A DNA stretch of 64,000 nucleotides from Candidatus Parcubacteria bacterium (lineage in GTDB: Bacteria > Patescibacteriota > Minisyncoccia > UBA6257 > JAGOQP01). Each line of letters starts with the position of its first letter. Positions within the stretch are counted from its first letter, which is position 1. The notes beneath the pieces are model-generated. The model was not told the DNA's origin. It saw only the letters and a program-made list of their open reading frames with translations, and did no database searches. Of this stretch, positions 27,802 to 56,504 are shown in pieces. The stretch covers positions 367,487 to 431,486 of the forward strand of contig AP024682.1 in NCBI GenBank assembly GCA_025999395.1, read 5' to 3'. The position numbers and the translations under genes were made by a program.

Positions 27802-29251
27802 ATGTTGGAGGATTTAATTAAAGAAAGAAAGAAAAAAGTAAAAGAATTGAGAGAACAAGGAATTAATCCTTATCCTATTTTTAGTCAACGAACCGCCTCT
27901 ATTAAAGAGGCTCTGGATTCTTTTTCCGCTTGGTCAAAATCGCGCAAAAAAATTTATTTGGTGGGAAGGATTAGAAGTCTTCGCGATCAAGGAAAGATTG
28001 TTTTTTTAGATCTAGAAGATATGAGTGAAAAGATTCAGGTGGTTTTTAAAAAAGAAGAAACTCAAAATTTTTCTTTCTTTAAAAAATATTTAGATATTGG
28101 AGATTTTTTGGAGGTATATGGCTATCTTTTTAAAACTCAAAGAGGAGAAAAAAGTATTCTAGCGTTGCGATTAAAAATTTTAGCTAAAAGTTTACGCCCA
28201 CTTCCTTCTGATTTTTATGGGTTAGTTGATACCGAAACAAGATTAAGAAAAAGATACTTGGATTTAATTTTAAACAAGGAAACCAAAGAACTTTTTATTA
28301 AGAAAAGTAAGTTTTGGAAAGCAGTAAGAGAATTTTTGGATAAAGAAGGTTTTTTGGAGGTAGAAACTCCTGTTTTTGAAATGATTCCCGGAGGAGCGGA
28401 AGCAGAGCCTTTTGTTACTCACCATAATGCTTTGGATCAGGATTTTTATTTAAGGATTTCTTTAGAAATTGCCTTAAAAAAAGCTAATAGTGGGAGGATT
28501 TGAAAAAATTTATGAGATTGGCAGGGTTTTTAGAAATGAAGGAATTGATGCTGAACACCTTCAGGATTACACTCAAATGGAGTTTTATTGGGCTTACGCG
28601 GATTATCGCCAGTTGATGACTTTTTTAAAGAAAATGTATCGGTTTGTAATAAAAAAGACATTTGGAACTTTAGTTTTTAAGTGGCAGGGTAAAAAAATTG
28701 ATTGGGGAAAAGAATGGAAGGTTTATGATTACTGCAAGCTTTTTTTTAAGGAAAATAAAATTGATCCCAAAACCGCTTCGTTAGAGGAATTATTAAAGAA
28801 AGCACAATCTTTACAAATCGAAGTTCCTCAGGGAGCGGGGAAGGGGCGATTGATTGACTTAATTTATAAAAAGACAGTCAGACCAAAATTAATTCAGCCT
28901 TGTTTTTTAATTAATCCTCCGGTAGAAATAGAGCCTTTAGCCAAAAGAAGCGAAAAAGATCCGCGAGTAGTAGAACGACTTCAAGTAATGGCTTATGGAA
29001 CAGAATTAGGAAAGGGTTTTTCCGAATTAAATGATCCTCAAGATCAAAGAGAAAGGTTTGAGGAGCAAATGAAGTTAAGAGCAGCAGGAGACAAAGAGGC
29101 CCAAATGTTAGACGAAGATTTTTTGGAAGCTTTGGAGTATGGAATGCCACCCACCGCAGGATTTGGAATGTCAGAGCGTCTTTTTGCGGTTTTGGCAAAC
29201 AAACCTATCCGAGAAACTATTTTCTTTCCTCCAATGAAAAAAAAGAGTTAA
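27802..29251 (+). CDS. lysS: lysyl-tRNA synthetase (class II), interrupted by a +1 frameshift in an A7 run at 28476-28482
   Basis: ORFs 27802..28503 and 28490..29251 are N- and C-halves of LysRS; removing one A restores [27 protein letters not shown] (motif 2 region); motif 3 GFGMSERL present. Confidence 0.8.
28476..28482 (+). other. A7 homopolymer at lysS frameshift point
   Basis: cctt-aaaaaaa-gcta read directly. Confidence 0.9.
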
Positions 29252-29331
29252 GATTTAAAAACTAATTTTAAAATCTCATATTTCAGAATTTACTATAATA
29301 TTTATTAAAGTTAGTTTTTTGTGATTTATAA

Positions 29332-29610
29332 ATGAGAAAGTATCTTTTTATTTTTCTTTTGATAATTTTAATTCTGCTTGTCATCTACTTTTTAGGAGGG
29401 ATTTTTTCGTTCAGATATCATCACAAAAAATGCCCTCAAATTGTAGATGAATTTGGGATGCCAATACTTGATTTTAGAAAGAAAAGTACTTTCTGTCTAA
29501 TTATAGAGAGAGCTTTTAAACTAAATTTGATTTTAAATCCGGAAACGGCACGGTCAATAATGCTTAAATGGCGTGAATTTCATTATAATCTTATAAAAAC
29601 GTTGAAATAG
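29332..29610 (+). CDS. small hypothetical membrane protein
   Basis: N-terminal TM helix FIFLLIILILLVIYFLGGIF; no homolog recognised. Confidence 0.4.
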   Translation: MRKYLFIFLLIILILLVIYFLGGIFSFRYHHKKCPQIVDEFGMPILDFRKKSTFCLIIERAFKLNLILNPETARSIMLKWREFHYNLIKTLK

Positions 29611-29668
29611 CAAAGTGGCTATGAGATAATTTACATCATTACAATTATTGCTCTGAGTTGTATCATCT

Positions 29669-30926: not shown

Positions 30927-31757
30927 TTGGATATGTTTGATTATTATCAGGAAAAGAAAAGAGAGGAAGTTATTAGAAAAAGAAGAAAGAAAAAATTTAT
31001 ATTAGCTTCTATTGTTTTTTTTCTTTTTTTAGGATTTTTGTTTTTTCTTTTTCATTCCAGTTTTTTTCAAATTAAAGCTTTAGAGGTTGAAGAAAAAGAC
31101 AATCATCAGCAGATAGCTGAAAAAAATTTAATCTCTGAAGTTTTTAGAGAAGAACTAAACAATCTTAGCTGGCCTTTAAACTGGATTTTTTCCAAAGATA
31201 ACCTCGTTCCTGTGCTTTTTAAAAAAGAAGTAATTATTGAAAAAGTTTTTCAATCTTTTCCTCTTTTTCGAGAAGTTGATTTAAAGGTTAATTTTTTCGA
31301 GAAAAAAGTTATTTTTCTGGTTAAAGAAAGAAATAAATTTGCTTTGTGGTGTAAAAAAACAAAAGAAGAATGCTTTTGGTTTGATGAAGAGGGAATTGCT
31401 TTTTTGGAGGCTCCCGTGGTAGAAGGAGAACTTATTTTCAAAGTTATTGATTATTCTGAAGGTGAAGTTAGAAAAGGGGAAAAAGTTCTTGCTGACAAAG
31501 ATTATTTAAAGAACTTAATCTCTGGTTTTGATTTTTTAAACAAAGCCGGCATTCCTTTGAGAACTTTGGAGTTAAAAGATTTAAGTTTAGCTGAGATTTC
31601 AACCCAAAAATTAAGTAATTTTCCTCAGATTCGTTTTAGTTTAAGGCATTCTCCCTTTTTTGCTTTGGAGGCAATTGAAAAAATAAGAAACATCTTTCCT
31701 CGACTTGAATATATAGATTTAACCGTTGAAAACAAAATATTTTACAAAGAGATATAG
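30927..31757 (+). CDS. FtsQ/DivIB-like cell division protein (TM + POTRA-like domain)
   Basis: Basic N-terminus, TM, then FtsQ-like pattern VDLKVNFFEKKVIFLVKERNKFALW...FDEEGIAF. Confidence 0.5.
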   Translation: MDMFDYYQEKKREEVIRKRRKKKFILASIVFFLFLGFLFFLFHSSFFQIKALEVEEKDNHQQIAEKNLISEVFREELNNLSWPLNWIFSKDNLVPVLFKKEVIIEKVFQSFPLFREVDLKVNFFEKKVIFLVKERNKFALWCKKTKEECFWFDEEGIAFLEAPVVEGELIFKVIDYSEGEVRKGEKVLADKDYLKNLISGFDFLNKAGIPLRTLELKDLSLAEISTQKLSNFPQIRFSLRHSPFFALEAIEKIRNIFPRLEYIDLTVENKIFYKEI

Positions 31758-31768: not shown

Positions 31769-33682
31769 TTATTCTAGTTCTAGATAATAAACAAAGATCG
31801 ATGTTCCAACACGAGCAAACGGCTGGCTGTAGCGACTCAGCCAGCTATATTCATCTTCGGGTTTTCTTTGAAAACCTTTTGTTGGGCGGGCGGTTGCTCC
31901 CTGAAGAGAGTTGATAGAAATAGCTAACCATTTAATACCAAAGTCAGCAGGATTTCCTTTGGCTGATTGCCAACTTACCGCCCTATCTTTAAGGTAGTAA
32001 AAAATATCTCCTCCTCCAAAGTAATCAACAGCAATTTTTTCTATCCCGTTTTTTTCTACAAAGTTTTTTAAACGGAGAAGATCTTGTCCCCAGTCATAAT
32101 TTGAATCAGTAACAAAGCGATAGCCATTTTTTACCCCTCCTCCAATTTGATTAAAATAAGAAATAAAGTAGGGAGTAGCTACGACCGTTTCTATTAATGC
32201 CCATACAAGCAAAAATAGAATAATCCCTATTTTTAGATGTTTAGAAGTAATTTTTTGAATTTCTTGCCTTAAATTAATTTTCGCTTCGTTTTTCTTATCA
32301 ACCCATTTTTTTAGAGATCCTGTTGCCAAAATGTAGATAAAGGGAATAGTGGGGAGAATGTGACGAAAACCAATGTTAAGAGGGCTGTTAATGCTATAAA
32401 GCCAATAAAAGATAACCATTACTAACATTGAAAATTCAGCGAAATTCATCATTAAATATTCTCTCAAAGAATTAAGATGACGAATCTTTTTGATAAATAT
32501 TCTACCTAGTCCCAAAATTATTCCTAAGAGAGTAATTATTAAAGCCGGCAAGCTTTCTTTAAGAAGAAAAACAACCGGGAAATAATACCACCAGCCTCCA
32601 CCACTAATTTCTCCCAAAAAGTAAGCAGTATTTCCCCCAGCTGATCTTTGCATTACCATCAATATTCCTAAAAGATAATGTCCCAAAGCCCTAAGAACAG
32701 GTACTTTAGCCATCCAAATATCTAAGTTAGCCAAACATCTTAAAGAGAGAGATTTGAGTTGACAACTTTTCCATTCTTTATCGGGGCCACCGGCAAAAGA
32801 ACTTAAGATAAACTCGGTGTCGGCTTGTTGTTTGGAAGCCGGGTAATTTAAGGTAAAGATGAAATAAACTAGCCAAACAACTGCTAATCCTATCAAAAAG
32901 ATAATTACTAAAGACTTTAGATAACTAATTAAAAAAGAAAAGGAATTTTTTGATTTTAAAAGGATATTTTTTTCCTTACAAGAAATAATCCAATGAATAA
33001 TCGTCAGAAAAAGAAAGAGCGGAACCAAAAGAATAACCGAAAATTTCATCAATTGAGCAATTCCAAAAAAGATTCCGGCCAGAATAGTGTTTTTGGGGGT
33101 AGGGGAGTTTAATTGCTTGTTAAAGAAGTAAAGTCCAATAAAAAAACCCAAAGTAGCTCCTACATCTGTAGTTACATAGTGACCGTGAGCCAAAAAGTGA
33201 GGAGAAAAAGCAACTAAAAAGGCGGGAATTTGAGCCCACCATTTTCCAAAAAGCTTTCTTGACCACCAGTAAACAAAGACAACAAGAGTAATCGTAAGAA
33301 AAATAGGAAAGATTCTTGCTAGAAAAATGATCTCATCGGCTTTGTTTTCATTAAGCCAATAGATAAATTGATTACCTACTGCCCATTGCCCATTTACTTC
33401 TTTTGTCCAAATTTCTTGATTGAGAGGAAAATTTAGTTTTTTAAAAACCAAAGGAATAGCCGCTAAAACCTTTACTAAGGGTGGATGTTCGGGATTAAGC
33501 CGATAATCAAAAAATCGAAGGTAGCTGTAAGCAGCAGGAATATGGGCTAATTCATCCATAATAGCTGCTTCTTGAGAAGCGGAAAGAACCATTAAAAAAG
33601 TTGAAGATAAAATTATTAAGCTTAATAGAAGCCAAGAAAAAAAGCTCGAAATTTTGTTTTTTAAGTGATTAATTTGATCCAT
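31769..33682 (-). CDS. GT-C fold glycosyltransferase (GT39/PMT_2/ArnT-like), polytopic membrane protein
   Basis: Many TM helices; first-loop DE motif AIMDELAHIPAAYSY; large size. Confidence 0.75.
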   Translation of the reverse strand: MDQINHLKNKISSFFSWLLLSLIILSSTFLMVLSASQEAAIMDELAHIPAAYSYLRFFDYRLNPEHPPLVKVLAAIPLVFKKLNFPLNQEIWTKEVNGQWAVGNQFIYWLNENKADEIIFLARIFPIFLTITLVVFVYWWSRKLFGKWWAQIPAFLVAFSPHFLAHGHYVTTDVGATLGFFIGLYFFNKQLNSPTPKNTILAGIFFGIAQLMKFSVILLVPLFLFLTIIHWIISCKEKNILLKSKNSFSFLISYLKSLVIIFLIGLAVVWLVYFIFTLNYPASKQQADTEFILSSFAGGPDKEWKSCQLKSLSLRCLANLDIWMAKVPVLRALGHYLLGILMVMQRSAGGNTAYFLGEISGGGWWYYFPVVFLLKESLPALIITLLGIILGLGRIFIKKIRHLNSLREYLMMNFAEFSMLVMVIFYWLYSINSPLNIGFRHILPTIPFIYILATGSLKKWVDKKNEAKINLRQEIQKITSKHLKIGIILFLLVWALIETVVATPYFISYFNQIGGGVKNGYRFVTDSNYDWGQDLLRLKNFVEKNGIEKIAVDYFGGGDIFYYLKDRAVSWQSAKGNPADFGIKWLAISINSLQGATARPTKGFQRKPEDEYSWLSRYSQPFARVGTSIFVYYLELE

Positions 33683-33765
33683 TTTTTTATTTTTAAAGTT
33701 AATCTTTCTATATTATAATATAAGTTAAGAGTTATTTGAATTCCTTTGCTTTTTAAAAGAAAAAA

Positions 33766-34170
33766 ATGATAAAATCCAAGTATTTTTGGACTCAGCACGC
33801 TCTCCGGAAAATGAAATTTTATCAACTTTCTGAGAGTCGAGTTCGGCGAGTAATCAAAAGCCCCTTAAGAATAGAGGAGGGGATTGCTTATGGAACCATT
33901 GCGGTGATGCAGCCATCAAGTTATAAGGTGAGAAATAATCAAAAAACTTGGAGTCAGGAAATTTGGGTAATGTATCAAATTGCTAGTCCAAAACCATCGA
34001 TAGATAAAAAAAGTAAAGAAAAAGGGAAAGGACAATCAAAAATTGTTTCTTCGGGTGATAAACTAATAAAGATAATTTCTGCTTGGCGGTATCCGGGAAA
34101 AACTAATCCCGGAAGGAAACTACCTCCCGAAGTAATAAATGAAATTGAAGAAGCCCTAAATAGCTTGTAG
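33766..34170 (+). CDS. hypothetical protein with DUF4258-like N-terminal motif (tentative)
   Basis: TQHALRKMKFYQLSESRVRRVIKSP resembles DUF4258 H-A-x-x-R-M...I-S...V signature. Confidence 0.35.
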   Translation: MIKSKYFWTQHALRKMKFYQLSESRVRRVIKSPLRIEEGIAYGTIAVMQPSSYKVRNNQKTWSQEIWVMYQIASPKPSIDKKSKEKGKGQSKIVSSGDKLIKIISAWRYPGKTNPGRKLPPEVINEIEEALNSL

Positions 34171-34214
34171 TTTTGAAATATTGAAGAAATTAAAAAATGT
34201 GATATAATTTAAAA

Positions 34215-35411
34215 ATGTCATCAAAAGTTAGTAAAGAAGAAATTGAAGAGATTTTAGAAAGGGGAGTGGCAGAGGTGATTGATAAGGAAGATTTAAGAAA
34301 AAGGCTTTTGGGAAGAAGCAAGTTGAGAGTGAAATTAGGTATTGATCCAACAAGCCCTAATATCCATTTGGGAAGGGCGGTTTCTCTTTTAAAATTAAGA
34401 GATTTTCAAAGATTAGGGCATAAAATTATTTTTATTATCGGTGATTTTACCGGGGTAATTGGTGACACTTCTGATAAAGAAAGCGAAAGGCCGATGCTGG
34501 ATGAAAAAACAGTTAAAGCTAATTTAAAGACTTATATTCAGCAAGTTTCAAAAATTTTGGATATCAAAAAAGTTGAAATAAAATACAATTCCTCTTGGCT
34601 TTCTAAGTTAACTTATAAGGAAATTGCTTATCAAGCCAATCTTTTTTCTCTTTCGGATTTTATTGACAGGGAAAACATTAAAAGAAGATTAATAGAAGGG
34701 AAACGCGTTTCTTTAAGAGAAGTCCTTTATCCCTTAATGCAAGCTTATGATAGCGTAATGGTAAAAGCGGATGTGGAGGTTGGAGGAACGGATCAAAAAT
34801 TTAATCTTTTGGCGGGTAGAGAAATGCAGCGGTATTATAAACAAAGGCCTCAAAATATTTTGATGGTCAATCTTATCGAAGGAACAGACGGACGCAAGAT
34901 GAGTTCGAGTTGGGGCAATACTATCAATATTAATGATAAACCGAACGATATGTTTGGCAAAGTAATGAGAATTGATGATGATTTAATTATTAAATATTTT
35001 ATTCACTGCACCCGAGTTCCTTTGAAAGAGGTTCACGATTATGAGAGACAACTCAAGCAAGGAATTAATCCAAGAAATATTAAAATGATTTTAGCCTACG
35101 AAATTACAAAGCTTTATTGGGGAGAAGAAGAAGCAGAAAAAGCTCGAAACTTTTTTATTTCTGCTTTTCAAAAAAAAGAAGCTCCCTTATCAGGGATTAA
35201 AACCTTAAAAGCAAAGAAAGGGACTACTTTTTTTGAGGTGTTATTAGCTAGCGGCTTTTTTAAAAGCAAGAGCGAATTAGCGCGACTTTTCAAGCAAGGA
35301 GCGGTTAAAACAATTGAGCCTCGATTAAGAATTGTTAACTTTCAGGATTTAGCGGTTGAAAGTGTAGTGAAAGTAGGGAAAAAGATCTTTTTCCGAGTTG
35401 AAATAGTTTAG
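34215..35411 (+). CDS. tyrS: tyrosyl-tRNA synthetase
   Basis: HIGH-type motif PNIHLGR, KMSSS, C-terminal S4-like domain. Confidence 0.9.
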   Translation: MSSKVSKEEIEEILERGVAEVIDKEDLRKRLLGRSKLRVKLGIDPTSPNIHLGRAVSLLKLRDFQRLGHKIIFIIGDFTGVIGDTSDKESERPMLDEKTVKANLKTYIQQVSKILDIKKVEIKYNSSWLSKLTYKEIAYQANLFSLSDFIDRENIKRRLIEGKRVSLREVLYPLMQAYDSVMVKADVEVGGTDQKFNLLAGREMQRYYKQRPQNILMVNLIEGTDGRKMSSSWGNTININDKPNDMFGKVMRIDDDLIIKYFIHCTRVPLKEVHDYERQLKQGINPRNIKMILAYEITKLYWGEEEAEKARNFFISAFQKKEAPLSGIKTLKAKKGTTFFEVLLASGFFKSKSELARLFKQGAVKTIEPRLRIVNFQDLAVESVVKVGKKIFFRVEIV

Positions 35412-35434
35412 TTTTCTTTTCTTTTTAAGAAAAG

Positions 35435-35605
35435 ATGAAAAGCTATTTTTTGAGATTAAAGATTTTTTTAAAAGAGAGAAAAAAAGAAATACTTCTTATT
35501 ATTTTGGCTTTTTTAATAATTGCTTTGGCTTTTGCTTTGGGCTATTTAACCGGAAGGGATTTTTTGGAAAAAACTCCTATTATTATCAATAAATATTCTT
35601 GTTAA
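35435..35605 (+). CDS. putative 56-aa single-TM peptide (not in ORF track)
   Basis: Hand translation MKSYFLRLKIFLKERKKEILLIILAFLIIALAFALGYLTGRDFLEKTPIIINKYSC. Confidence 0.25.
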   Translation: MKSYFLRLKIFLKERKKEILLIILAFLIIALAFALGYLTGRDFLEKTPIIINKYSC

Positions 35606-35644
35606 AGGTTTAAAGGGGGAGAGAGAGAAAGTTTAAATTTACTC

Positions 35645-36427
35645 TTACTCTAAGTAGCCTATTTGTTTTAACCAGTATTCATTTTCCCATTCCCAAAGTT
35701 TTTTGGCTCCTAAGAAAGCTTGATAATCGCTTTTCCAATAAGGAAATTCTTTTAGTTCTATTTCTCCCACTAACTCACTCCATTCATGTTGACAAGCTTC
35801 TGATTTGGTTTTGATGTTTTTATCGTTTGGATCCCAAGCAAGACGAATTTTTTCTCTCCCTCCTTTAGGGCGTAAAGTAGCTCCACATTTAAGACATTTC
35901 TTGTGTTGATCGACTCTTAAAATCCAACGGGTTTGAAGATTGGGAAAATCTTTTTCTAAGGCTGCCATATAAGCGGAAGTTTGAAGATTATAGTCTCGAT
36001 AAATAGATTGGGAAGTTTTAATATCCAAAACTCCGAATTTCCCGTTAATTAAAGCTAAAGCATCAAGAGTTCCCGCGTAGCGCTCTTCAAAATTAATTAT
36101 TCTTTTTTCTACTTGTTCAGGGTCTACTTGAATGCGATTTTGTTCAATAAAATTTAGAAAAGCTTCAATGGCTGGTTTAATAGATTCATCAATAGTAGGG
36201 GATTTACCTGTCAAAATTCCTTCTATAGTTTCGTGAATAAGCGTTCCCTCGGAGGCAGATTTAGCTTTAATATCTTCTCCCTCAGCAAAAGAGTTCATTT
36301 CAGCATAAAACTTATAAAGGGCGGGTTTAGCTTTAATTTCAACGATTTTAGTTACTCGCGGATACCAGACTCCATCTATTTCGTAGCCGGCAACCTCTTT
36401 AAAGTGTTTGACATCAAAATAGTTCAT
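35645..36427 (-). CDS. PD-(D/E)XK nuclease, RecB/Cas4-like (stand-alone)
   Basis: Motifs GTLIHETIE, GTLDAL, VLDIKTS (D-x-K), QTSAYMAAL (QxxxY); Cys cluster CLKCG...C.H. Confidence 0.65.
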   Translation of the reverse strand: MNYFDVKHFKEVAGYEIDGVWYPRVTKIVEIKAKPALYKFYAEMNSFAEGEDIKAKSASEGTLIHETIEGILTGKSPTIDESIKPAIEAFLNFIEQNRIQVDPEQVEKRIINFEERYAGTLDALALINGKFGVLDIKTSQSIYRDYNLQTSAYMAALEKDFPNLQTRWILRVDQHKKCLKCGATLRPKGGREKIRLAWDPNDKNIKTKSEACQHEWSELVGEIELKEFPYWKSDYQAFLGAKKLWEWENEYWLKQIGYLE

Positions 36428-36615
36428 AAGAGTAGATTAAAGGATATTTACTAAAGACTCTGAGGATAGTTTAAAATAGAACCTTAAATAAGTAAAGTTT
36501 TCGCATAAAAAGCATAGTGTTTCAAGCCGGGGAAGAGTAGAAAAAGATTTAATAAAGTGTCGCACAATATACCTTTTATGATATATTATTATTGATTGAG
36601 ACTAAGATAAGGTTT

Positions 36616-36918
36616 TTATTTAAATAGATTAAGAAGCCAATTAAAGATATCGATTAAGATATTAAAAAGAGCTATAAAAAGATTGATGATCAGCTTAAAA
36701 ACAGACAAAAGAAAGTCAACCAATTCCTTACCTATCTTAGTAGAATTAATAAAGAAAAATATCTTCTTAAAGAAAGAAACAATCAAAGAAAAGAGCTCAA
36801 CTAATTTTTCCCATAGATCCTTTTCTTTCAGAAAGTTGACTATAGAGCCCAAGCTCTCTCCCCATTTTTCCAGATTAAAAAGGCTATTTAAATCTGGTTG
36901 TTGAGATGGAAAAGACAT
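36616..36918 (-). CDS. hypothetical small protein with very hydrophobic C-terminal half
   Basis: ORF only; overlapping + strand ORF 36683..36904 also possible; uncertain. Confidence 0.25.
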   Translation of the reverse strand: MSFPSQQPDLNSLFNLEKWGESLGSIVNFLKEKDLWEKLVELFSLIVSFFKKIFFFINSTKIGKELVDFLLSVFKLIINLFIALFNILIDIFNWLLNLFK

Positions 36919-36952
36919 ATCTTTTTAATTATAGCAAATTTTAATAATGAGA

Positions 36953-38233
36953 TTAGAGTGCCAGATAGTTACGAGGATTAATATCACCGCCATAAGGCAT
37001 TTTAGGACCACAGGATTTACTGTTATCAATTCTGAAGGTAGAAGAATCATAAACAGTGAAGTGAAGATGAGGACCGGTAGCATAACCAGTGCTCCCCACA
37101 TAGCCAATAATTTGTCCTCTTTCTACTTTTTCTCCTTCTTTAACAACATACAAAGAAAGATGGGCATACAAAGTGGTAAGGCCAGAATAATGACGAATGG
37201 CTACATACTTTCCGTAAGCGCCTTTATAGCAATATCGATCTTGATTTTCTGCAGCTACTACTATTCCCTCTTGAGCAGCATAAACTGGAGTTCCCAAAGG
37301 GGCGGCAAAGTCTAATCCGTTATGCCATTTTCCTCGGTAAGCTCTTTGAGCAAATTTTGTTGCGCCATAATCTTGGGTAATAGAAGAAAAAGTAGCTAAA
37401 GGTAAGCTTAAAAATCCCGGTGCTTGTTGAGGAAGATTTTTGTAATTAATTTGAGTTCTTAATTGAGCCTCCATTTTTTCTATTTCTAAAGCAATGGCTA
37501 ATTGTCTTTCTTCTAATTCTTTAAGGTAGGCTTGGTAAATTTTTTCCTTATTTTTGGTTTCTTCTAAAAATTTTGCTTTTTCTTTTCTTATTTCGTCAGC
37601 AATGATTTTCTTGTTTTTTAAATTCTGATGTTCAATTTCTTTTTGAGTTTTAATGGCAGCGGTTTTTTCTAAGATCGAGTTAAGATTGTCTTTTGCTTGT
37701 TTTAGCTCGTTAATACTTATTAAAATGTTGCTATTAATGTCATAAAGAGATTGGACATCTGAAATCCCTTCAGAGAGAGTTTTGTTTCTTAAAAAAATAA
37801 GAAGAAGGTTATCTTCTTCTTTTTGTTGTAGTTGTCTTAAAACTTCTCCTAAAGCTTTTCCTTTAAGTTCGATTTCTTTTTCTGCCTGACTAATGTCTTT
37901 CTGCAAAGAATCCATTTCCAATTCTAATTTTTCAAGAGTAACTTGACTGGAATAAATATTAAGCTCAATTTCTTTTAAATCAGCATTTATCTTTTTTAAC
38001 TCTGACGAAAGAGTATTTTTTTGAAGTTGGGTTTCTTCTATCTTTTTTCTTTGTTCTAAAATCTCTCTATTGATTTTTTGAAGCTCTAAGGTTTTGGCAT
38101 CTATTTGAGCCTTCAAATTTTCTTTATTGGCTACTTCAGCTAAACCAAAATTGATAGGAAAAATTATTTGATTTAGCAAAAAGATGATAAATACAAAAAA
38201 ACTTGTTGTTGCTGAAAGGTAAGAATTTTTCAT
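36953..38233 (-). CDS. M23 (LytM) family peptidase with N-terminal signal/TM and long coiled coil (EnvC-like)
   Basis: HNGLDFAAPLGTPVYAA, YGKYVAIRHYSGLTTLYAHLS, GSTGYATGPHLHF. Confidence 0.85.
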   Translation of the reverse strand: MKNSYLSATTSFFVFIIFLLNQIIFPINFGLAEVANKENLKAQIDAKTLELQKINREILEQRKKIEETQLQKNTLSSELKKINADLKEIELNIYSSQVTLEKLELEMDSLQKDISQAEKEIELKGKALGEVLRQLQQKEEDNLLLIFLRNKTLSEGISDVQSLYDINSNILISINELKQAKDNLNSILEKTAAIKTQKEIEHQNLKNKKIIADEIRKEKAKFLEETKNKEKIYQAYLKELEERQLAIALEIEKMEAQLRTQINYKNLPQQAPGFLSLPLATFSSITQDYGATKFAQRAYRGKWHNGLDFAAPLGTPVYAAQEGIVVAAENQDRYCYKGAYGKYVAIRHYSGLTTLYAHLSLYVVKEGEKVERGQIIGYVGSTGYATGPHLHFTVYDSSTFRIDNSKSCGPKMPYGGDINPRNYLAL

Positions 38234-38265
38234 GAAACCAATATTTTTTCAGGAAGTTTCTTGAT

Positions 38266-39723
38266 TTAAAGAAGTTCGGAAGCTTTCTTAATGGCAGCCT
38301 CGATTCTTGAGAGCGTTTCTTTTTTTCCTAAAACCCACATAATTTCAAATGGTCCGGGAGAGCTTTTTCGTCCGGAAAGGGCAACTCTTAAGGGCCAAAG
38401 CGACTCCCCTCTTCCTAAAGTTTCTGCTAAAGGCATTATTTCTTTTTCTAATTTACTGATTTCAAAATCTTTTTCGTCTATTTTGTTGATAGCGTCATAA
38501 AGATTTTTAAGATTAAGAACCACTTTATTAAGGGACATTCCTTGCCATCTTAAAGTTTCTACTTCCCACTCCCCTATTTCAAAGAAAAATTCGGCTAATT
38601 CTTTAAATTCAGAAAGTTTTTTCATTCGATCTCTTTCTACCACCACTGCTTTTTTCAAAATTTCTTCTTTTTCTAACCACGCAGCGGGAACAAAATTTTT
38701 AATTCTTTCAACTAATGTTTCTAAAGGAAGATTTTTAATATACTGAGCATTAAACCAATCCAACTTTTCTACACTAAAAACTGCTCCACTTTTTTGAATT
38801 CTTTTAAGATTAAAAAGTTTTATCATTTCTTCCAAACTGAGAATTTCCTGATCGTTTTCTGGGTGCCATCCTAGTAGCACCAGAAAGTTTAAAATTGCTT
38901 CAGGAAGATAACCTTCTTTTAGATATTCAACAAAAGATGTTTCCATTTTTCTTTTGGAAAGTTTGCTTCTGTCGGGAGCTAAAATTAGAGGTAAATGAGC
39001 GTATTTGGGAATTTCGAAATTAAGGGCCTTTTGAATGATAATCTGACGAGGAGTGTTGGAAATATGATCTTCTCCTCTGATTACATGAGTAATTTTCATT
39101 AAACTATCATCAATTGCATTCGCTAAAAGAAAAAGAGGGGTTTCTTCATCTTTAGCGATTACAAAATCCCCGATAATCTCTGAGCTAACGGTAATTTTTC
39201 CTCTGATTAAGTCGTTAAATTCGATGGTGGTAGAAGTTGGGGCAATTATTCGAATTACCCCCTTTTGACCGCTTTTTATTTTTTCCTCGACTTCTTTTTG
39301 AGTAAGATGGCGGCACTTTCCACTGTATTTAGGGGCAATACCAGCTGCTAACATTGCTTTTCTTTCCTCCTCTAATTCTTGTGGAGAGCAAAAACACCAA
39401 TAGGCTTTTTTTTCGTCTAAAAGTTTTTTAATGTATTCTCGATAAATTTCTTTTCTCTCGCTTTGACGATAAGGGCCATAAGGGCCTCCAATATCAGGTC
39501 CTTCGTCCCAGCTAATTCCTAAGGTTTTAAGGCCTTCTATGATGTCTTTTTCGTAAATTGGCAGCGATCTCTCGGTATCAGTATCTTCTATTCTAAGGAT
39601 AAATATTCCCTTTTCTTTTTTAGCAAAAAGATAGTTAAAAAGGGCGGTTCTAATAGTCCCTAAATGTAAATAACCAGTCGGAGAAGGAGCGATTCTTACT
39701 CTTGGAGCGGTATTTTCCGTCAT
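38266..39723 (-). CDS. gltX: glutamyl-tRNA synthetase
   Basis: RIAPSPTGYLHLGT (HIGH), KLSKRK (KMSKS). Confidence 0.92.
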   Translation of the reverse strand: MTENTAPRVRIAPSPTGYLHLGTIRTALFNYLFAKKEKGIFILRIEDTDTERSLPIYEKDIIEGLKTLGISWDEGPDIGGPYGPYRQSERKEIYREYIKKLLDEKKAYWCFCSPQELEEERKAMLAAGIAPKYSGKCRHLTQKEVEEKIKSGQKGVIRIIAPTSTTIEFNDLIRGKITVSSEIIGDFVIAKDEETPLFLLANAIDDSLMKITHVIRGEDHISNTPRQIIIQKALNFEIPKYAHLPLILAPDRSKLSKRKMETSFVEYLKEGYLPEAILNFLVLLGWHPENDQEILSLEEMIKLFNLKRIQKSGAVFSVEKLDWFNAQYIKNLPLETLVERIKNFVPAAWLEKEEILKKAVVVERDRMKKLSEFKELAEFFFEIGEWEVETLRWQGMSLNKVVLNLKNLYDAINKIDEKDFEISKLEKEIMPLAETLGRGESLWPLRVALSGRKSSPGPFEIMWVLGKKETLSRIEAAIKKASELL

Positions 39724-39774
39724 TTTTCCATAATATCACAAAAATCGCCTAATTTAAAGAGCTTTGGCTAATTT

Positions 39775-40923
39775 TTAAGCTTTTGTGACTATTTTGGCAA
39801 TTTCTCTGGCAATAATGTTAGCGGCTTGGGGTTTAGCAAAATTGCCTATTTTTTCTACCATTGATTGGTACTTCTCTTTGTTGAAAAGAAGGGAATCTAG
39901 TTGGGAAAAAAAGATTGCTGGTCTTAAATTGTCTTCTTCAATTACAATACAGCCCCCTTCCTGAGCATATTCATAGGCATTATAGTATTGATGGTTATTA
40001 GCTGATTCCTTTAAGGGAATAAGAATTGAGGGCTTTTTAAAATAAGCGATTTCAAAGATAGCATTACTCCCGGCTCGAGAAATAACTACATCAGCTGCAA
40101 TGAAAGCTTCTTTTAGGTTTTCTTTAAAGAAATCTATAATTTTGTAGCGGTTTCTTTCTTGAGGAATAAAATCTTTGGTTGCTATCGCTAATTCTGCTTT
40201 AAAACTATTAAAATTGGCAATACCTGTTTGATGAAGAACTTGGCAACGCGAAACCAACTGCTTAACATTATCTAACATAAAATCATTAATTCTTACTGAA
40301 CCCTGTGAACCACCTAAAATTAAAACTAAAGGAAAATCAGGATCAAAACCAAAAATTTGTTTAGCTTTGGCTTGGGTTAACTCCTCATCTTTTTCTAAAA
40401 GAAAAGGGCGAAGCGGGTTTCCTACTAAAGCTGTCTTTTTTTCATCAAAAAACTCTAAAGTTTTACTGAAAGCAACAGCAATTCTTTTAGCAAAATTAGC
40501 AGAAAGAGCATTAGTTGTTCCCGGAATAGAATCTGATTCGTGAATGAAGATGGGAATTTTAAAAAAATAAGCCGCTAAAACTACCGGAAAAGCACCCGTC
40601 CCCCCCTTGGAAAAAAGTAAATCTGGCATCTTCCAAAACATTTTCCAGAAAGCTACCATTAAGGCAAAAGGAAATTTGATAATGTCTAGAAAATTTTCTA
40701 AAGAAAAATAGCGTCTTATTTTTACTTCGACTATTTTTACAATTTCAATATTTAGTTTTTTAAATTCGGGAGCAAAAAATCCGGGATTGCCAAAGTAATA
40801 CATTTTTAAATCAAACTCTGGCAAATTAGTAAATACTTTTTGTAACTCTTGAGCAACCGCTAAGATTGGATTAATGTGCCCTCCCGTTCCCCCTCCTGTA
40901 AAAGCAATTCTAATCTTTTTCAT
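39775..40923 (-). CDS. murG: undecaprenyldiphospho-muramoylpentapeptide beta-N-acetylglucosaminyltransferase
   Basis: FTGGGTGGHINPILAV G-loop; dcw context. Confidence 0.9.
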   Translation of the reverse strand: MKKIRIAFTGGGTGGHINPILAVAQELQKVFTNLPEFDLKMYYFGNPGFFAPEFKKLNIEIVKIVEVKIRRYFSLENFLDIIKFPFALMVAFWKMFWKMPDLLFSKGGTGAFPVVLAAYFFKIPIFIHESDSIPGTTNALSANFAKRIAVAFSKTLEFFDEKKTALVGNPLRPFLLEKDEELTQAKAKQIFGFDPDFPLVLILGGSQGSVRINDFMLDNVKQLVSRCQVLHQTGIANFNSFKAELAIATKDFIPQERNRYKIIDFFKENLKEAFIAADVVISRAGSNAIFEIAYFKKPSILIPLKESANNHQYYNAYEYAQEGGCIVIEEDNLRPAIFFSQLDSLLFNKEKYQSMVEKIGNFAKPQAANIIAREIAKIVTKA

Positions 40924-40978
40924 AAGAAAAATATTAAGGCTATCAAGAATAGATTTTTGAAATTATTTTAACATATTT

Positions 40979-42136
40979 TTAAGTAGAAGAATAACGGGAA
41001 ATATTAGCGATAATCCCTATCATTGTGAGAGTAACCGCAAAAGAAGTTCCTCCGTAACTTATTAAGGGCAACGGCACTCCGGTAAAAGGAAGCACTCCAG
41101 AATTAGCTCCTATATGAATTATTGCTTGAAGAGATATAACTGAAAGAAATCCCAAAAGGCAAAGTTTAGCAAAATCATCATGAGTTTTTTTCATTAATTT
41201 TGTTCCTCTCCAAAAAATAATCATATAAGACGAAATCACTGCTAGACTTCCTATAAATCCAAATTCTTCAGCAATTACTGCGAAAATAGAATCTCCCATT
41301 GGCTCTGGCAAGACACTATATTTACTGGTAGATTTTCCAAAACCTACTCCTTTTAAGCCACCAGCGCTAATAGAAGAAAGAGCCTGCTCTAAATGAAATT
41401 TGTCGACCTTTTCAATATTATCTTTTAAGATTAGAGAGGGAAAAAATTTTTCGGCTAAGATATTCCAATAGGGAGCAATCCGATAAAGTCGATAAGGGGT
41501 TATTAAGGCTAAAAGAGCAATTGCAGTTAAGCCCAAAAGAAAAGTTAGAGTAATTTGTTTCCAAGAAGCGCCGCTAAAAAGATAAATTATTGCTCCGGCC
41601 GAAAGGATAATAACGGCAGTGGTAGTGGCTGGTTGAAGAAAAATTAATCCTCCCACAACGGCAGAAACAAAAAAGAAAATCCAATAAACCTTCCAACTTT
41701 TTTTTAGATCTCTTAGTTGATTACTTGAAAGAAGTCCGGCCAAATAAAGAATAAAGGTTATTTTTAAAAACTCTGAGGGTTGAAAAGAAATAAATCCTAA
41801 ATCAATCCATCGGGCTGAGCCGTGAGATTTAAAGCCCAAAGGAGTAAAAACCAAAAAGAGAGCTAATAAATTAGCAGCAAAGAGAAACGGGGAAATTTTT
41901 TTTAGATAGCGGTAGTAAATAAAGTAAGCAAATATAAAACCCACTAAACCCGGTAAAAAACCCTTAAAAAATTGATTCTTAACAAAAAAAAGAGCATCAT
42001 TATATTTTATTTTAGCTAAATCTGAAGAAGCTGAAGAAAGAAAAAAGAATCCAGCAATGATTAAAAAAAGAGTTACCCCCAAAAAGATATAATCAGGTTT
42101 ATGTCTTGAGGATAAGACTATTTTTTTAAAAATCAT
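40979..42136 (-). CDS. ftsW: SEDS family lipid II flippase/peptidoglycan polymerase (FtsW/RodA)
   Basis: 10-TM SEDS pattern, location between mraY and murG. Confidence 0.85.
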   Translation of the reverse strand: MIFKKIVLSSRHKPDYIFLGVTLFLIIAGFFFLSSASSDLAKIKYNDALFFVKNQFFKGFLPGLVGFIFAYFIYYRYLKKISPFLFAANLLALFLVFTPLGFKSHGSARWIDLGFISFQPSEFLKITFILYLAGLLSSNQLRDLKKSWKVYWIFFFVSAVVGGLIFLQPATTTAVIILSAGAIIYLFSGASWKQITLTFLLGLTAIALLALITPYRLYRIAPYWNILAEKFFPSLILKDNIEKVDKFHLEQALSSISAGGLKGVGFGKSTSKYSVLPEPMGDSIFAVIAEEFGFIGSLAVISSYMIIFWRGTKLMKKTHDDFAKLCLLGFLSVISLQAIIHIGANSGVLPFTGVPLPLISYGGTSFAVTLTMIGIIANISRYSST

Positions 42137-42173
42137 TTTTCAATGAAAAGCTAATACTTTTGCTTTTTGATTA

Positions 42174-43691
42174 TTAAGGTCGATGTCTTAAAACCTCTCC
42201 CCCGCCTTTAAAATTGGGATTTAACTCTCCTTCATCAACCGCTATTTGACCGTTAACAAAAACGGTTTTAATTTCAAAATCTTTATTAAAAATTACTAAA
42301 TCGGCAAAATACCCATCACTAATCATTCCCCTTTTTTCTAACTTTAAGATTTTTGCTGGGAGTCCAGAGATTTTATAAATTGCTTTTTCTATACTTAATC
42401 CTAAACTAGATGTTTTTTTCAAGAAGGCAGGAAAGCTTTTGAAAGCTCTTTCTGGTTTAAAGGTTAGCGGTAAGTCATCAAAATTAGGACTGTTAGAAGA
42501 AATTAAAGAGCGAGAAGAAAGAAGTGATTTTTCTATTTCGGAGTCATTTAAATTTCTATAAAGAATAACCGCTCTTAAGCGAGTCTCTTTCATTAAACTT
42601 AAAAGAACCTCCTTTTCTTCTTTTAAGTTTCTATTTGAAGCAAATTCTTTTAGTGTTTTACCATTAAGTTTTTCTAATCCCGGAGCGTTAAGAATAACAA
42701 CTTCTTCTAGTTTTAAAGAAGGAAGCAGCTTTTTAACTTCTTTAGCAATTTTGGAATCATCAAGTTTTTCTAAAATTAATTCTCGATCGGCATTTTTGAT
42801 GGATTCCGGAATAAAGTTATCTATGGGAACAGCGCTTAAATCAAAAGGATTAACATCAAAATAGACTTCTACTTGATTGCTTTTTTCCTCAATTAAACTT
42901 AAGGCTTGATTAAAATTTTCTTCAAATCCCAAAAACGGCCTTAAGTGACTAATAACCGTTACTATTCCTATTTCTTGAGCTAATCGAAGAATTTCCTTAA
43001 CTGAATCAATGATAAATCTTTTTTCATCTTTTAAATGGACGGTGAAAATTCCTTTTAATTGTTTAACAATGTCTAACAAAGCTCTTAATTCGTAATAAGA
43101 GATATTTTGGTAAGGGTAATAACCTAACCCCGCCGACATTCCAAAAGCTCCTTCTTTTAAAGACTGGGAAAGGATAAAACGAAAAACGCGAATTTCGTTG
43201 GCAGTTAAATCTCTGAAAGTTTGAGGGTTTTTCATAATATCTTCCCGAATTACCCGGTGTCCCACTAAAGTTGCTAGATTTGGGCCAATTTTTCCCTGTT
43301 TTTCTAAGGAATTAAGAAATTCCCCCACCCCCTTCCAATCAAGGTTGATATGATTAGTTTTTGACCAGCTCCAAAGATGATTGAGTGATCCGTAAAGATT
43401 AGGAGCTAAAGAAAATCCGCAATGACCAATAAGAATAGTAGTCACTCCTTGTTTAAGAAAATCCTTGCAAAGAGGCGAAGAAAAAAGAGTTAAGTATCTA
43501 TCAGAAGTGTTATTAAAATCAATAAAGCCCGGAGCTAAATAAGATTCGTTTCCTAAAATAACTTTATCTGCCTTATAAGAAGGAAAACTCCCAATGGCAA
43601 TAATTTTTTTATCTCTAACTAAAACATCAGCCTTGTGGGAACTGCGACCACTTCCATCTATCAAAATAACATTTTTGATTAAAGTGGTCAT
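42174..43691 (-). CDS. amidohydrolase-fold protein (D-aminoacylase-like) with degenerate metal-binding motif
   Basis: N-terminus IKNVILIDGSG...ADVLVRDKKIIAIG...APGFIDFNNTSD where family consensus is GFID-H-x-H. Confidence 0.7.
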   Translation of the reverse strand: MTTLIKNVILIDGSGRSSHKADVLVRDKKIIAIGSFPSYKADKVILGNESYLAPGFIDFNNTSDRYLTLFSSPLCKDFLKQGVTTILIGHCGFSLAPNLYGSLNHLWSWSKTNHINLDWKGVGEFLNSLEKQGKIGPNLATLVGHRVIREDIMKNPQTFRDLTANEIRVFRFILSQSLKEGAFGMSAGLGYYPYQNISYYELRALLDIVKQLKGIFTVHLKDEKRFIIDSVKEILRLAQEIGIVTVISHLRPFLGFEENFNQALSLIEEKSNQVEVYFDVNPFDLSAVPIDNFIPESIKNADRELILEKLDDSKIAKEVKKLLPSLKLEEVVILNAPGLEKLNGKTLKEFASNRNLKEEKEVLLSLMKETRLRAVILYRNLNDSEIEKSLLSSRSLISSNSPNFDDLPLTFKPERAFKSFPAFLKKTSSLGLSIEKAIYKISGLPAKILKLEKRGMISDGYFADLVIFNKDFEIKTVFVNGQIAVDEGELNPNFKGGGEVLRHRP

Positions 43692-43698
43692 AGGGGGT

Positions 43699-44748
43699 TT
43701 AATTTAAAATCATTCTAGAGAGGAAAAAGAGAACTAATCCTAAACCATTAGAAACCGCCGTAATTATCCAAAATCTCATTGTAACACGAGATTCATGCCA
43801 ACCCAAAGCTTCGAAATGATGATGAATAGGAGTAGAAAGGAAAATTTTTCTTTTAAAAAGTTTTTTGGAGATTGTTTGAATAATTACTGATAGTGACTCA
43901 ATAACTAAGATTGGAGCAAATAAAGGCAAGAAAAGAATAGTGTTAGTTAATAAAGAAATGGTTCCCAAAGTAATTCCTAAAGCCATCGAGCCGGTATCTC
44001 CCATAAAAAATTTTGCTGGATAAATATTAAACCACAAAAAAGCCAAAAGCGCTCCTGCTAGTGTTGCAGAGAAAGCTCCTAATTCGTATCTTCCTAAAGC
44101 AAAGGCTACTACCGTTAAAGAACCAAAGGAAAAAAGTGAAACTCCTGCCAGAAGGCCATCTAAACCATCGGTTTCATTTGCAGAAAAAGCCGAAGCGAAA
44201 ATAATAAAGATAAAAAGAGGAATATACCAGCCATCTATCTCAATGTTGCCTACAAAAGGAATGTGAAGTACTGTCCAGTTAAGCTTAAAATAAAACCAAT
44301 AAGCGCCCAACAAAGAAATTAAGAAATAAAGAAGAAGCTTTCTTTTAATAGACATTCCTCCTCCGTTAGGACCTTTTTTAAAAACTCCAAATAAGTCATC
44401 AATAAGCCCTAAAATAGCTGCTATTAACATCGCCGCCAAAGGTAAGTAGGTTTGGGCTCTATCTACAAAATTAAAATATCTCCAAAAACCATCAAAAATT
44501 TTATCTAAAAGGAGAAAAAGAAAGGCCAACCCAATAACTGTTCCCCAAATAATTACTCCTCCCATAGTGGGAGTTCCTTCTTTGTTTTTGTGCAAAGATG
44601 AAAAAATTGGAGTTTCAGGACTTTGTCTTATTTGTTTTCCTATTTTGTAACGGTAAAGAATTTTAATCACTACTGGCGTTAAAGCTAAAGCAGTAAAGAA
44701 AGAAATTCCCATTAAAATTAGAATTCTAACAACTTGAGAGGTAAGCAT
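43699..44748 (-). CDS. mraY: phospho-N-acetylmuramoyl-pentapeptide transferase
   Basis: PTMGG, DGLDGLAG, FMGDTGS motifs. Confidence 0.93.
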   Translation of the reverse strand: MLTSQVVRILILMGISFFTALALTPVVIKILYRYKIGKQIRQSPETPIFSSLHKNKEGTPTMGGVIIWGTVIGLAFLFLLLDKIFDGFWRYFNFVDRAQTYLPLAAMLIAAILGLIDDLFGVFKKGPNGGGMSIKRKLLLYFLISLLGAYWFYFKLNWTVLHIPFVGNIEIDGWYIPLFIFIIFASAFSANETDGLDGLLAGVSLFSFGSLTVVAFALGRYELGAFSATLAGALLAFLWFNIYPAKFFMGDTGSMALGITLGTISLLTNTILFLPLFAPILVIESLSVIIQTISKKLFKRKIFLSTPIHHHFEALGWHESRVTMRFWIITAVSNGLGLVLFFLSRMILN

Positions 44749-44764
44749 AAGTCTTTAAATTAAG

Positions 44765-45865
44765 TTAATTATTTTGTTGTTCAAGACACTTAAGCAACTT
44801 TTCTACATCACTAAAACGATTGCGGCTCGCCAAAACTCCTATAAAAAAGGTTCCTTGATTCTTCTTAAATAATGTTACCAAATTTTCACCCGAAGCATCA
44901 ATAAAGCCAGTTTTCCCTCCAAAAAAGTTTGGTTGACCGGCAAAAAGATTAATATTGGAAAAAGTTTTTATTTTACCACTCCCCTCTTCTCTTAAAGAAA
45001 CACTTTTCTTTCGACTAATATCCAAAATAAGTGGATTGTTATGATAAATGTAATTTATTAAAAGATAAATATCTTCTAAAGTTGATTGGTTCAGATAAGA
45101 AAGTCCCGTTGGTTCATCAAAGGAAGTATTTTTCATTCCCAATTCCTTAGCTTTTTGATTCATTTTTAAAATAAAATCATTGTAGCCAAATCCTTCTGCC
45201 AAAGAATAAGCCGCTTCATTACTAGAAAAAACTAAAGCAGCTTTAATTAGACTTTCTACAGAGTATTTCTCTTTTTCCAATAAGATGTGACTATTATAAG
45301 CCTTTTGAAAGGCTTGAGGACTAATTTCTAAAACACTTGAAAGATTCATGTTCTCTAAAGCAACTAAGGCGGTCATTAGTTTAGTAATAGAAGCAATTGG
45401 CCAGCGATAGTTAGAGCGGTTTTCAAAAATTGTTTTATTGTTTTCTATATTTTTAACCAAAAAGAATTCTGTTTCTAAAGAAGAACAATTTTGTTTAGAA
45501 TCTTTTTCTTTAGCCAGAGAAGATTCTTCAACTAAAGTCGTTTCCGAAATTTTCCTGTTTTCCGAAATTTTAGAGTAAGATAAATTTTGGCTTTCGCTGC
45601 TATTGGCGTTGCGAAGCAGCAGAGTTTTTTCTTGGCTTTGAGGGATTTCTTTTTGAGAAGGTTGAGGGGGTAAATTAGAATTAGTTTCCTGATTTTTTGA
45701 AAGAATATCTGAATCATCTGCTTTTTCTCTTAAAACAACAAAAGCTGCTGTTTGATTTTTTTCAGAAAAGAATTGATTTCTCGAGAAAACATTCGTCTTG
45801 GAAGAAAGAGACAAGGAAATAAAGATTATAAAGATAAGAATTAAAGCTTGAAACTTTACGCTCAT
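44765..45865 (-). CDS. dacA: D-alanyl-D-alanine carboxypeptidase (S11, PBP5-like) with long low-complexity N-terminal region
   Basis: SITK (SxxK), SSN (SxN), KTG motifs. Confidence 0.85.
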   Translation of the reverse strand: MSVKFQALILIFIIFISLSLSSKTNVFSRNQFFSEKNQTAAFVVLREKADDSDILSKNQETNSNLPPQPSQKEIPQSQEKTLLLRNANSSESQNLSYSKISENRKISETTLVEESSLAKEKDSKQNCSSLETEFFLVKNIENNKTIFENRSNYRWPIASITKLMTALVALENMNLSSVLEISPQAFQKAYNSHILLEKEKYSVESLIKAALVFSSNEAAYSLAEGFGYNDFILKMNQKAKELGMKNTSFDEPTGLSYLNQSTLEDIYLLINYIYHNNPLILDISRKKSVSLREEGSGKIKTFSNINLFAGQPNFFGGKTGFIDASGENLVTLFKKNQGTFFIGVLASRNRFSDVEKLLKCLEQQNN

Positions 45866-45879
45866 TTTCTAAATAAAGT

Positions 45880-46464
45880 TTAATTTTTATTTTCTCTTTG
45901 GTTTTCTTCCTGAAAAAGGCTGTTTTTAATCTCTGAAAATTTCTGAAAGTTAGGAAGTTCTTCTATTTTACTTAAACCTAAATATTTCAGTAATTCAAAA
46001 CTTGGTTGATAAAGATAGAAGTTTCCTTTTGTTTTTCTTTCAATTAATCCTCGGATAAGTAAATTTCTTAAGGTAAAACTGGAGTTTACTCCTCGAATAT
46101 AGTCAATTTGAGCTCGGGAAATTGGTCCAAAATAAGCAATTATAGAAAGAGTTTCTAAAGCAGCGGGAGTTAATTCTTCTTTCAAATTTTCTTTTACAAA
46201 GGCTTCAAGAAGCGGAGCAAATTGTGGTTTAGTTACTAAAGCGTAAGTTTCTTCTTTTTCCACCAGCATTATTCCTCTTTTTTCTTGTTTTGTTTCTTCT
46301 GCTAATTGATTGAGAGCCTCTTTTATTTCCTGCAAAGAAACTCCAAAAATTTTACATAACTTTTCTTTTTCAATAGGTTCTCCGTAAAGAAAAAGAAAAG
46401 CTTCTAAAGCAGCTAAAAGGTTGTTATTTGAGGAAAAATTATAAAGTTGATTATTCTCGCTCAT
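45880..46464 (-). CDS. scpB: segregation and condensation protein B
   Basis: Winged-helix ScpB pattern, position after scpA with 4-nt overlap. Confidence 0.85.
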   Translation of the reverse strand: MSENNQLYNFSSNNNLLAALEAFLFLYGEPIEKEKLCKIFGVSLQEIKEALNQLAEETKQEKRGIMLVEKEETYALVTKPQFAPLLEAFVKENLKEELTPAALETLSIIAYFGPISRAQIDYIRGVNSSFTLRNLLIRGLIERKTKGNFYLYQPSFELLKYLGLSKIEELPNFQKFSEIKNSLFQEENQRENKN

Positions 46465-47231
46465 ATTTTTCTTTCTTCTCTTTTACTGTTAGATAATTGC
46501 TCTATTTCTATTTCTCCAAAAGTAATTTTCTGGCTGACCTTAAGAATCTGATCTCTTAATAAGTGAAGCAAAGCCAGAAACATAACGATTATTTCTTCTT
46601 TTGGCTTTTGAGTTATCATTTGAGAAAAGTGAGAAATTCCTTGAGATATTTTTTTAAAAATTTCTTTGATTTTGTCTTCCAAGCTAAAAAGCTGTCTTTC
46701 TATTTTTTCTGTTTCAATAAAAAAAGAGTGTAAAGAATCTAATATTGAATTAAGACTAAAGGCTAAAGTTTCTGGAGAAATATTTTTGGAGGGATAAAAA
46801 ACAGGGTTTACCGACAAAAGCATTTCTCGAGAAAAAGATTGTTCTTGTTTATTCCATTGTTGTTTCATATTTAAGAAAATGGGGCGAATTTTTTGATAAA
46901 TTTCTAATCTCTTTTCTAGATCTTGAATGCTTTGCTCTTCTTCTTGGGATAGCTCTAAATTGGGAATTAGCGCTTTTGATTTAATCAGAATTAACTGAGC
47001 CGCTACCACTAAAAAATCAGCCAGGATTTTCGGACTTACTTGACTTTTTGTTTGATTATTTTCGTCTGATTCTTTTGGGCCTTGCTGAGAAAGAGAACGA
47101 ACATAATTTAAAAAATCTGCTGTTACTTCTGCTAAGCTAATTCTTGTTATATCTAACTTTTTAGACTCAATCAATTCCAGCAGTTTTTCTAAAGGCCCAG
47201 AAAATTCAGCTGATTTCACTTCAAAATCCAT
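46461..47231 (-). CDS. scpA: segregation and condensation protein A
   Basis: ScpA-like N-terminus FSGPLEKLLELIESKKLDITRISLAEVTADFL. Confidence 0.85.
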   Translation of the reverse strand: MDFEVKSAEFSGPLEKLLELIESKKLDITRISLAEVTADFLNYVRSLSQQGPKESDENNQTKSQVSPKILADFLVVAAQLILIKSKALIPNLELSQEEEQSIQDLEKRLEIYQKIRPIFLNMKQQWNKQEQSFSREMLLSVNPVFYPSKNISPETLAFSLNSILDSLHSFFIETEKIERQLFSLEDKIKEIFKKISQGISHFSQMITQKPKEEIIVMFLALLHLLRDQILKVSQKITFGEIEIEQLSNSKREERKI

Positions 47232-47362
47232 ACTTTCTCAATTATACTGGAGAAAAACACCTCTTTCAATGAATAGAAAAGAATTTATTTCTGCTTTGAA
47301 ATTAGGATTTTTACAATTAGATAAATTTAATTTATACTTATTTTAGATTTAATTTTTGTTTA

Positions 47363-48475: not shown

Positions 48476-48500
48476 CTTATTTAGAGAATTTTAGAAGATT

Positions 48501-48571
48501 TGGGGGATCGTCTAACGGTAGGACAGCGGCCTTTGGAGCCGTTAATCCAGGTTCGAATCCTGGTCCCCCAG
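48501..48571 (+). tRNA. tRNA-Gln (anticodon UUG)
   Basis: Folded by hand: U1-A72 acceptor, D stem GTCT/GGAC, anticodon loop CTTTGGA, T arm CCAGG-TTCGAAT-CCTGG, discriminator G. Confidence 0.85.
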
Positions 48572-48606
48572 CTAATAACGTTTTTATTTAAGAACTCGTT
48601 TTCTCT

Positions 48607-53509: not shown

Positions 53510-53530
53510 TTTTAAAAAATTTTTACCTAG

Positions 53531-56486: not shown

Positions 56487-56504
56487 AATAAAATTTTTAA
56501 AATT

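Follow-up and report, generated by a model that had tools for sequence, protein, structure and literature searches.

The window analysed here, a 64-kb stretch of the circular genome AP024682, contains on its + strand a lysS locus (27802-29251) that is split into two adjacent open reading frames (ORFs). The first ORF (27802-28503, + strand) encodes 233 aa, which comprise an OB-fold domain for anticodon binding and the beginning of the catalytic core with motif 1. It matched the Pfam profiles tRNA_anti-codon (PF01336) and tRNA-synt_2 (PF00152), the latter over profile positions 2-85. The second ORF (28490-29251, + strand) encodes 253 aa in the +1 frame, contains motif 2 (GRVFRNEG) and motif 3, and matched tRNA-synt_2 (PF00152) over profile positions 88-307. 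As the PF00152 match covers positions 2-85 in one product and 88-307 in the other, the two ORFs represent adjacent pieces of one domain. Their +1 relation is given by the offset between the two starts (28490-27802 = 688 = 3x229+1). The frame is thus broken within the catalytic core, immediately ahead of motif 2.

Direct reading of the window sequence identified a homopolymer of exactly seven A's (A7) at 28476-28482 of the + strand (GCCTTAAAAAAAGCT). This run is the site of the frame break and is one A longer than in all of the related assemblies (A6). Frame 0 across the break (28471-28503) reads GCC TTA AAA AAA GCT AAT AGT GGG AGG ATT TGA, and the first ORF ends with the out-of-frame tail ANSGRI and a premature frame-0 TGA at 28501-28503. 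In the +1 frame, the earliest possible start is the GTG at 28490, while the correct reading runs on from the AAG at 28481-28483. No Shine-Dalgarno (SD) sequence was identified upstream of this GTG.

Deletion of one A from the A7 run fused the two lysS ORFs into a single ORF of 482 aa. The repaired protein showed 100% identity over 100% of its length to MCX7616217.1, which is annotated as lysine--tRNA ligase (Patescibacteria group bacterium). It scored 514.9 bits against the NCBIfam model TIGR00499 (cut-off 427.6) and 562 against NF001756 (cut-off 468). The protein also aligned end to end with solved lysyl-tRNA synthetase (LysRS) structures (PDB 3a74, E = 6.6e-118), and the frame junction fell within the aligned stretch of 3a74. 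An OB-fold domain followed by a class II (D/K/N) core, together with a score above the equivalog cut-off, places the repaired window gene as a full-length member of bacterial LysS (TIGR00499, PRK00484), above the curated cut-offs. It differs from this family in that the ORF is interrupted in the window as deposited (A7), whereas one uninterrupted frame is present in six related assemblies (A6). The two ORFs are the halves of one class II LysRS, and chance resemblance is excluded. An earlier note on this DNA had read the two ORFs in this way, had placed a +1 break at the A7 run, and had proposed that six A's would give one continuous frame. The split Pfam match, the NCBIfam scores and the identity to MCX7616217.1 confirmed the first of these claims, the run of exactly seven A's and the offset of 688 the second, and the 482-aa ORF, in which the motif-2 region reads as the note had given it, the third.

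Contigs encoding the intact protein were found in four assemblies (Logan SRR32929653, Logan DRR290133, GCA_026419535.1 and Logan ERR15113712), and look-ups with the neighbouring greA added two more (GCA_900175145.1 and Logan SRR11582150). All six of these independent, same-species public assemblies read TTAAAAAAGCT, that is, A6, and lysS was intact in each. The SRR11582150 contig ends early and shows 308 aa straight through the run; apart from the extra A, it matched the window at every position of the 1,694 nt aligned. Relative to the related loci covering the lysS site (8/8), the A at 28476 is a window-specific insertion. All window indels were tabulated against 22 related loci, and the lysS indel alone disrupts a window ORF. 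The remaining indels were intergenic, in-frame, located at a gene end, or gene-breaking in the other assembly. Among the best 120 of 8000 LysRS hits, the distant homologues (63-76% identity) were uninterrupted and ~480 aa in length, and query coverage was 96-100% in each of the 120.

The window was cross-checked against the DRR290133 assembly over 17802-48546. Logan contig DRR290133_13831 aligned with window 17802-39251 (locus L002) over 21,449 nt without a mismatch, and its 1 gap was the lysS A. The same contig aligned with window 33699-48546 (locus L010) over 14,848 nt with 1 mismatch, a substitution at 41757. The window thus differed from the DRR290133 assembly at two positions in 30.7 kb, one substitution and the extra A, which was the sole indel.

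An exact look-up among ~15 billion proteins found the half-products in one record only, as BCX16156.1 (KatS3mg098_385), identical to the 27802-28503 product, and BCX16157.1 (KatS3mg098_386), identical to the 28490-29251 product. Both are annotated as hypothetical protein (Candidatus Parcubacteria bacterium) and lie on a single contig of 561,860 nt. A gene-position index gave no exact match for either half. The site pattern with A6 to A9 gave no match in genome and metagenome contig collections, in which the source stretch may be masked or absent.

KatS3 is a hot-spring sediment sample from Katase (Kato et al. 2022, PMC9671151). Table S3 of that paper lists KatS3mg098 with a coverage of 6.8x and 1 contig of 561,860 bp, circular, under the accession AP024682, and with the taxonomy Paceibacteria, o__UBA6257, f__UBA9933, g__GWA1-42-9 (PMC9671151). 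The KatS3 MAGs were assembled from PacBio HiFi reads using metaFlye 2.8.3, and the methods mention no polishing (PMC9671151). The run DRR290133 has been described as metagenomic PacBio HiFi reads (PMC11646566) and as hot-spring reads (bioRxiv 10.1101/2025.08.20.671380). It is the sole DDBJ accession named in the data availability of BASALT, where the hot-spring sediment HiFi data set is credited to Kato et al. (PMC10928208); Kato et al. give DRA011957 and PRJDB11609, without a run number (PMC9671151). From the descriptions of DRR290133 and the BASALT citations, we infer that one read set underlies both the window and the Logan contig, which would have been assembled from it separately. DRR290133 appears to be the read set behind KatS3mg098, a link assembled from three papers. 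Two assemblies of apparently the same reads therefore appear to disagree at the lysS homopolymer, the independent Logan DRR290133 assembly being without the indel, and its A6 agrees with five further assemblies.

Because the extra A occurs solely in one low-coverage long-read assembly (KatS3mg098, HiFi/metaFlye, 6.8x), we consider it highly probable that the seventh A is a homopolymer-length consensus error of that assembly and not biology. The organism would carry an ordinary, intact and single class II lysS with A6, in which TTA AAA AAG encodes Leu-Lys-Lys. The seventh A would have arisen on metaFlye assembly of KatS3mg098 from PacBio HiFi reads at just 6.8x, with the reads themselves presumably favouring A6. 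The split gene would then have been annotated as two hypothetical proteins, and no recoding mechanism would be involved. The earlier note had offered three options, and the homopolymer sequencing or assembly error is the one that has held up, with A7 in one 6.8x assembly and A6 in six; the pseudogene and slippage or programmed frameshifting have not.

Wrong homopolymer lengths are the type of error that characteristically persists in long-read consensus sequences. The lysS case resembles such PacBio and Nanopore errors in that a one-base indel in an A/T run splits a conserved single-copy gene into adjacent ORFs, and in that the indel is unique to one 6.8x assembly and absent elsewhere. Long-read consensus has been reported to retain homopolymer indels that lead to frameshift errors in gene calling (PMC9262707). 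The accuracy of the assembly counts against an artefact, since AP024682 was otherwise accurate over the 30.7 kb compared, with the lysS A as the sole such error. It also sets the case apart from typical long-read errors, as assemblies built from HiFi reads usually reach very high accuracy. With independent errors among the HiFi reads, a wrong call would rarely gain the majority at ~7x, and the artefact reading must therefore assume a local coverage dip or a polisher bias.

Gene-breaking 1-nt indels were also observed in other assemblies of this species, namely in Logan contigs of the runs SRR15510187 and SRR15510186. Contig L021 (1140-1199) had A8 in place of A7 early in lysS, at the position of window 27946-27952, and the gene was broken. 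A 1-nt deletion in L009, corresponding to window 40072, breaks murG, and L014 had T8 in place of T7 near the start of a peptidase S11 gene (window 45751). None of these indels was common to other assemblies, which suggests read or assembly noise; as such indels are scattered across assemblies, they would not reflect a property of the lysS site.

With a consensus error as the explanation, the 'finished' circular genome AP024682 most likely carries a one-base error, which merits a correction note. The split of lysS into two 'hypothetical proteins' could mislead inventories of Patescibacteria metabolism or essential genes through an apparent loss of LysRS.

It is unlikely, in our assessment, that the sampled strain, or a sub-population of it, truly acquired the seventh A through a +1A mutation in the very recent past. 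LysRS would then be inactivated in cells that are being lost, or the mutation would be tolerated via a trickle of full-length LysRS, produced by the non-programmed transcriptional loss of one A or by tRNA-Lys slipping +1 on A AAA AAA G. The extra A is present in the deposited record, A-runs mutate readily through replication slippage, and removing any single A, whether from the mRNA or during decoding, brings back exactly the wild-type LKKL reading. There are precedents for rescue in Buchnera and Blochmannia (PMC5009743) and in Citrobacter tssM (PMC4256274). However, A7 was present in no other assembly, and A6 was found in the independent assembly that apparently derives from the same reads. 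LysRS is, moreover, essential, and no substitute was visible within the 64-kb window.

The length of the run was compared with slippage thresholds taken from PMC5009743, PMC6260861 and PMC4256274. The RNA polymerase of E. coli requires at least seven T's, and still more A's, for indel bypass (PMC6260861), and efficient slippage has been documented at runs of 9 (PMC5009743) and, in tssM, of 11 (PMC4256274). Productive slippage calls for an A/T run of ~9 or more (the RNA:DNA hybrid length), and the lysS run is 7. With seven A's, the run at most just reaches the length needed for appreciable slippage by bacterial RNA polymerase (PMC6260861, PMC5009743). The slippage-rescued poly(A) tracts of Buchnera and Blochmannia, of Citrobacter rodentium tssM1 (A11) and of Thermus dnaX (9 T in the template) resemble the lysS run in that an A-run frameshift lies in a needed gene and in that mRNAs with fewer or more A's could be back in frame. 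These tracts are of 9-11 or more bases and their frameshifted state is fixed or conserved (PMC4256274, PMC5009743), whereas the lysS run is of 7 bases and occurs in one assembly. The direction of the error is a further difference. Across the transcriptome, insertions prevail in homopolymer runs and deletions are rare (PMC5574713). The rescue of lysS would require a deletion or a +2 insertion. No frame-restoring error was found in Buchnera transcripts (PMC5574713).

The statement in the earlier note that A-runs of at least seven are classic slippage sites was too generous. Intact ORFs of the window contain 69 A7, 18 A8 and 2 A9 runs on the sense strand (89 in total); a run of seven is thus commonplace at the 33% G+C of this genome and cannot act as a strong signal for slippage. 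That the Katase hot-spring population of this ultra-small Paceibacteria member truly carries the seventh A, and that the essential single-copy lysS is rescued by low-level loss of an A or by tRNA-Lys +1 slippage, is decidedly improbable, and nothing found points toward a real A7 with decoding rescue. If true, it would represent a 'savior/compensatory' frameshift, and no run as short as this has been shown to function in bacteria. A real A7 would be a modest addition to the known homopolymer frameshifts that are tolerated through decoding infidelity.

It is very unlikely that lysS is a true pseudogene compensated elsewhere in the 562-kb genome by a class I lysK or a second lysS, and equally so that a functional LysRS is made from two polypeptides. 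The repaired window lysS was identical to the intact DRR290133 allele (L002). Three strains differed from it at 2 synonymous and no nonsynonymous codons, and a fourth strain (GCA_900175145.1) at 12 synonymous codons and 1 nonsynonymous codon. As nearly all of the differences are synonymous, lysS is under purifying selection in the lineage and the window copy gives no hint of pseudogene drift. Neither further disabling changes nor relaxed selection were seen, near-identical strains retain an intact lysS, and the pseudogene option of the earlier note accordingly found no support. Within the 64-kb window, no second lysS was found using tblastn, and no class I LysRS (PF01921) or extra PF00152 was present among the annotated genes; the aminoacyl-tRNA synthetases annotated there were AlaRS, SerS, a class Ib enzyme and a GluRS-type tRNA-synt_1c. 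A split, two-subunit LysRS was considered and rejected, as the second half is without a ribosome-binding site and the two halves would meet inside the catalytic core.

Programmed recoding, in which a conserved +1 ribosomal frameshift or transcriptional slippage would regulate LysRS synthesis, is very unlikely, to the point of carrying next to no weight, and is in practice refuted by the absence of conservation among the sequences compared: relatives from 100% to 63% identity have one ~480-aa ORF (best 120 of 8000 hits), and the six same-species assemblies have A6. An A-run is present, and a GGGAGG (28492-28497) lies just before the frame-0 ATT TGA, by coincidence. However, the GGGAGG is located downstream of the run, simply consists of the Gly-Gly codons within the conserved VGGFE, and adjoins ATT TGA directly without a spacer, and a shift at ATT TGA would put ANSGRI in place of LIVGGF. 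An ordinary GCT codon follows the run, no slow or stop codon adjoins it, and the frame-0 stop is six codons on. No stimulatory RNA structure was identified downstream of the A7 run, where folding was no more stable than in shuffled controls (z = 0.03). Slippage or programmed frameshifting, as offered in the earlier note, was thus not upheld, the frameshift being not conserved, the site having no stimulatory signal and the run being at best just long enough for appreciable slippage.

Specific shift sites were also considered and rejected. A prfB-like shift at GGGAGG-ATT-TGA has the wrong spacing, AUU cannot re-pair in the +1 frame, and the conserved LIVGGF would be lost. Frameshifting by -1 on a dnaX-like A AAA AAG would need a register that this heptamer has in the repaired frame alone, and the C-terminal lysS frame is out of reach for a -1 shift that starts in frame 0.

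A genuine example of +1 recoding is present in the same window in prfB (RF2; 52417-53509, - strand), which served as a positive control. The gene has a canonical programmed +1 site (shift site 53433-53449). Its short ORF0 (MLEKDYQQKLNDLTVRLRQIGGWL) ends ...GGA GGC TGG CTT TGA G, the +1 frame enters the PCRF/RF-1 ORF, and the reconstructed RF2 is 363 aa. The shift site was identical in 3/3 related contigs examined. In the public records, the gene callers called only a 229-aa or 147-aa downstream part of prfB. The lysS break shares the +1 direction of the shift. In prfB, however, a CTT TGA shift codon and stop and an upstream SD-like GGAGG are common to all strains examined, whereas the lysS site has none of these: neither conservation nor a shift codon and a stop or slow codon with a spaced upstream SD-like stimulator was found there.

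The ~390 nt between lysS and serS (window 29257-29667) were present only in the window and the DRR290133 contig; the lysS-serS spacer is 31 nt in other strains. This insert contains a 92-aa ORF (29332-29610) with a hydrophobic N-terminus, for which neither Pfam nor an exact look-up among recorded proteins gave a match. A pattern from the strain-specific insert gave no match in the contig collections, in which the source stretch may be masked or absent. The PMT-family ORF at 31769-33682 (- strand) encodes 637 aa in the window and the DRR290133 strain and 635 aa in four other strains, the two extra residues being due to a 6-nt tandem duplication, TTCTAG TTCTAG, at its C-terminal end (31769-31777).

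Three ORFs had no Pfam match, encoding 276 aa (30927-31757, + strand), 135 aa (56079-56486, - strand) and 548 aa (56418-58064, + strand); the latter two overlap head-to-head by 69 nt. The tRNA genes identified were tRNA-Gln(TTG) (48501-48572, + strand) and tRNA-Thr(CGT) (53530-53602, - strand). In L009, the tRNA-Gln gene has a C-run that is 1 nt shorter, within its 3' portion (window 48562). The cumulative GC skew peaked at about 34000-36600, and genes were oriented on the + strand over 1-35411 and mostly on the - strand from 35645 onward. The skew peak and the switch in orientation form the pattern expected at the replication terminus of the circular 562-kb genome.
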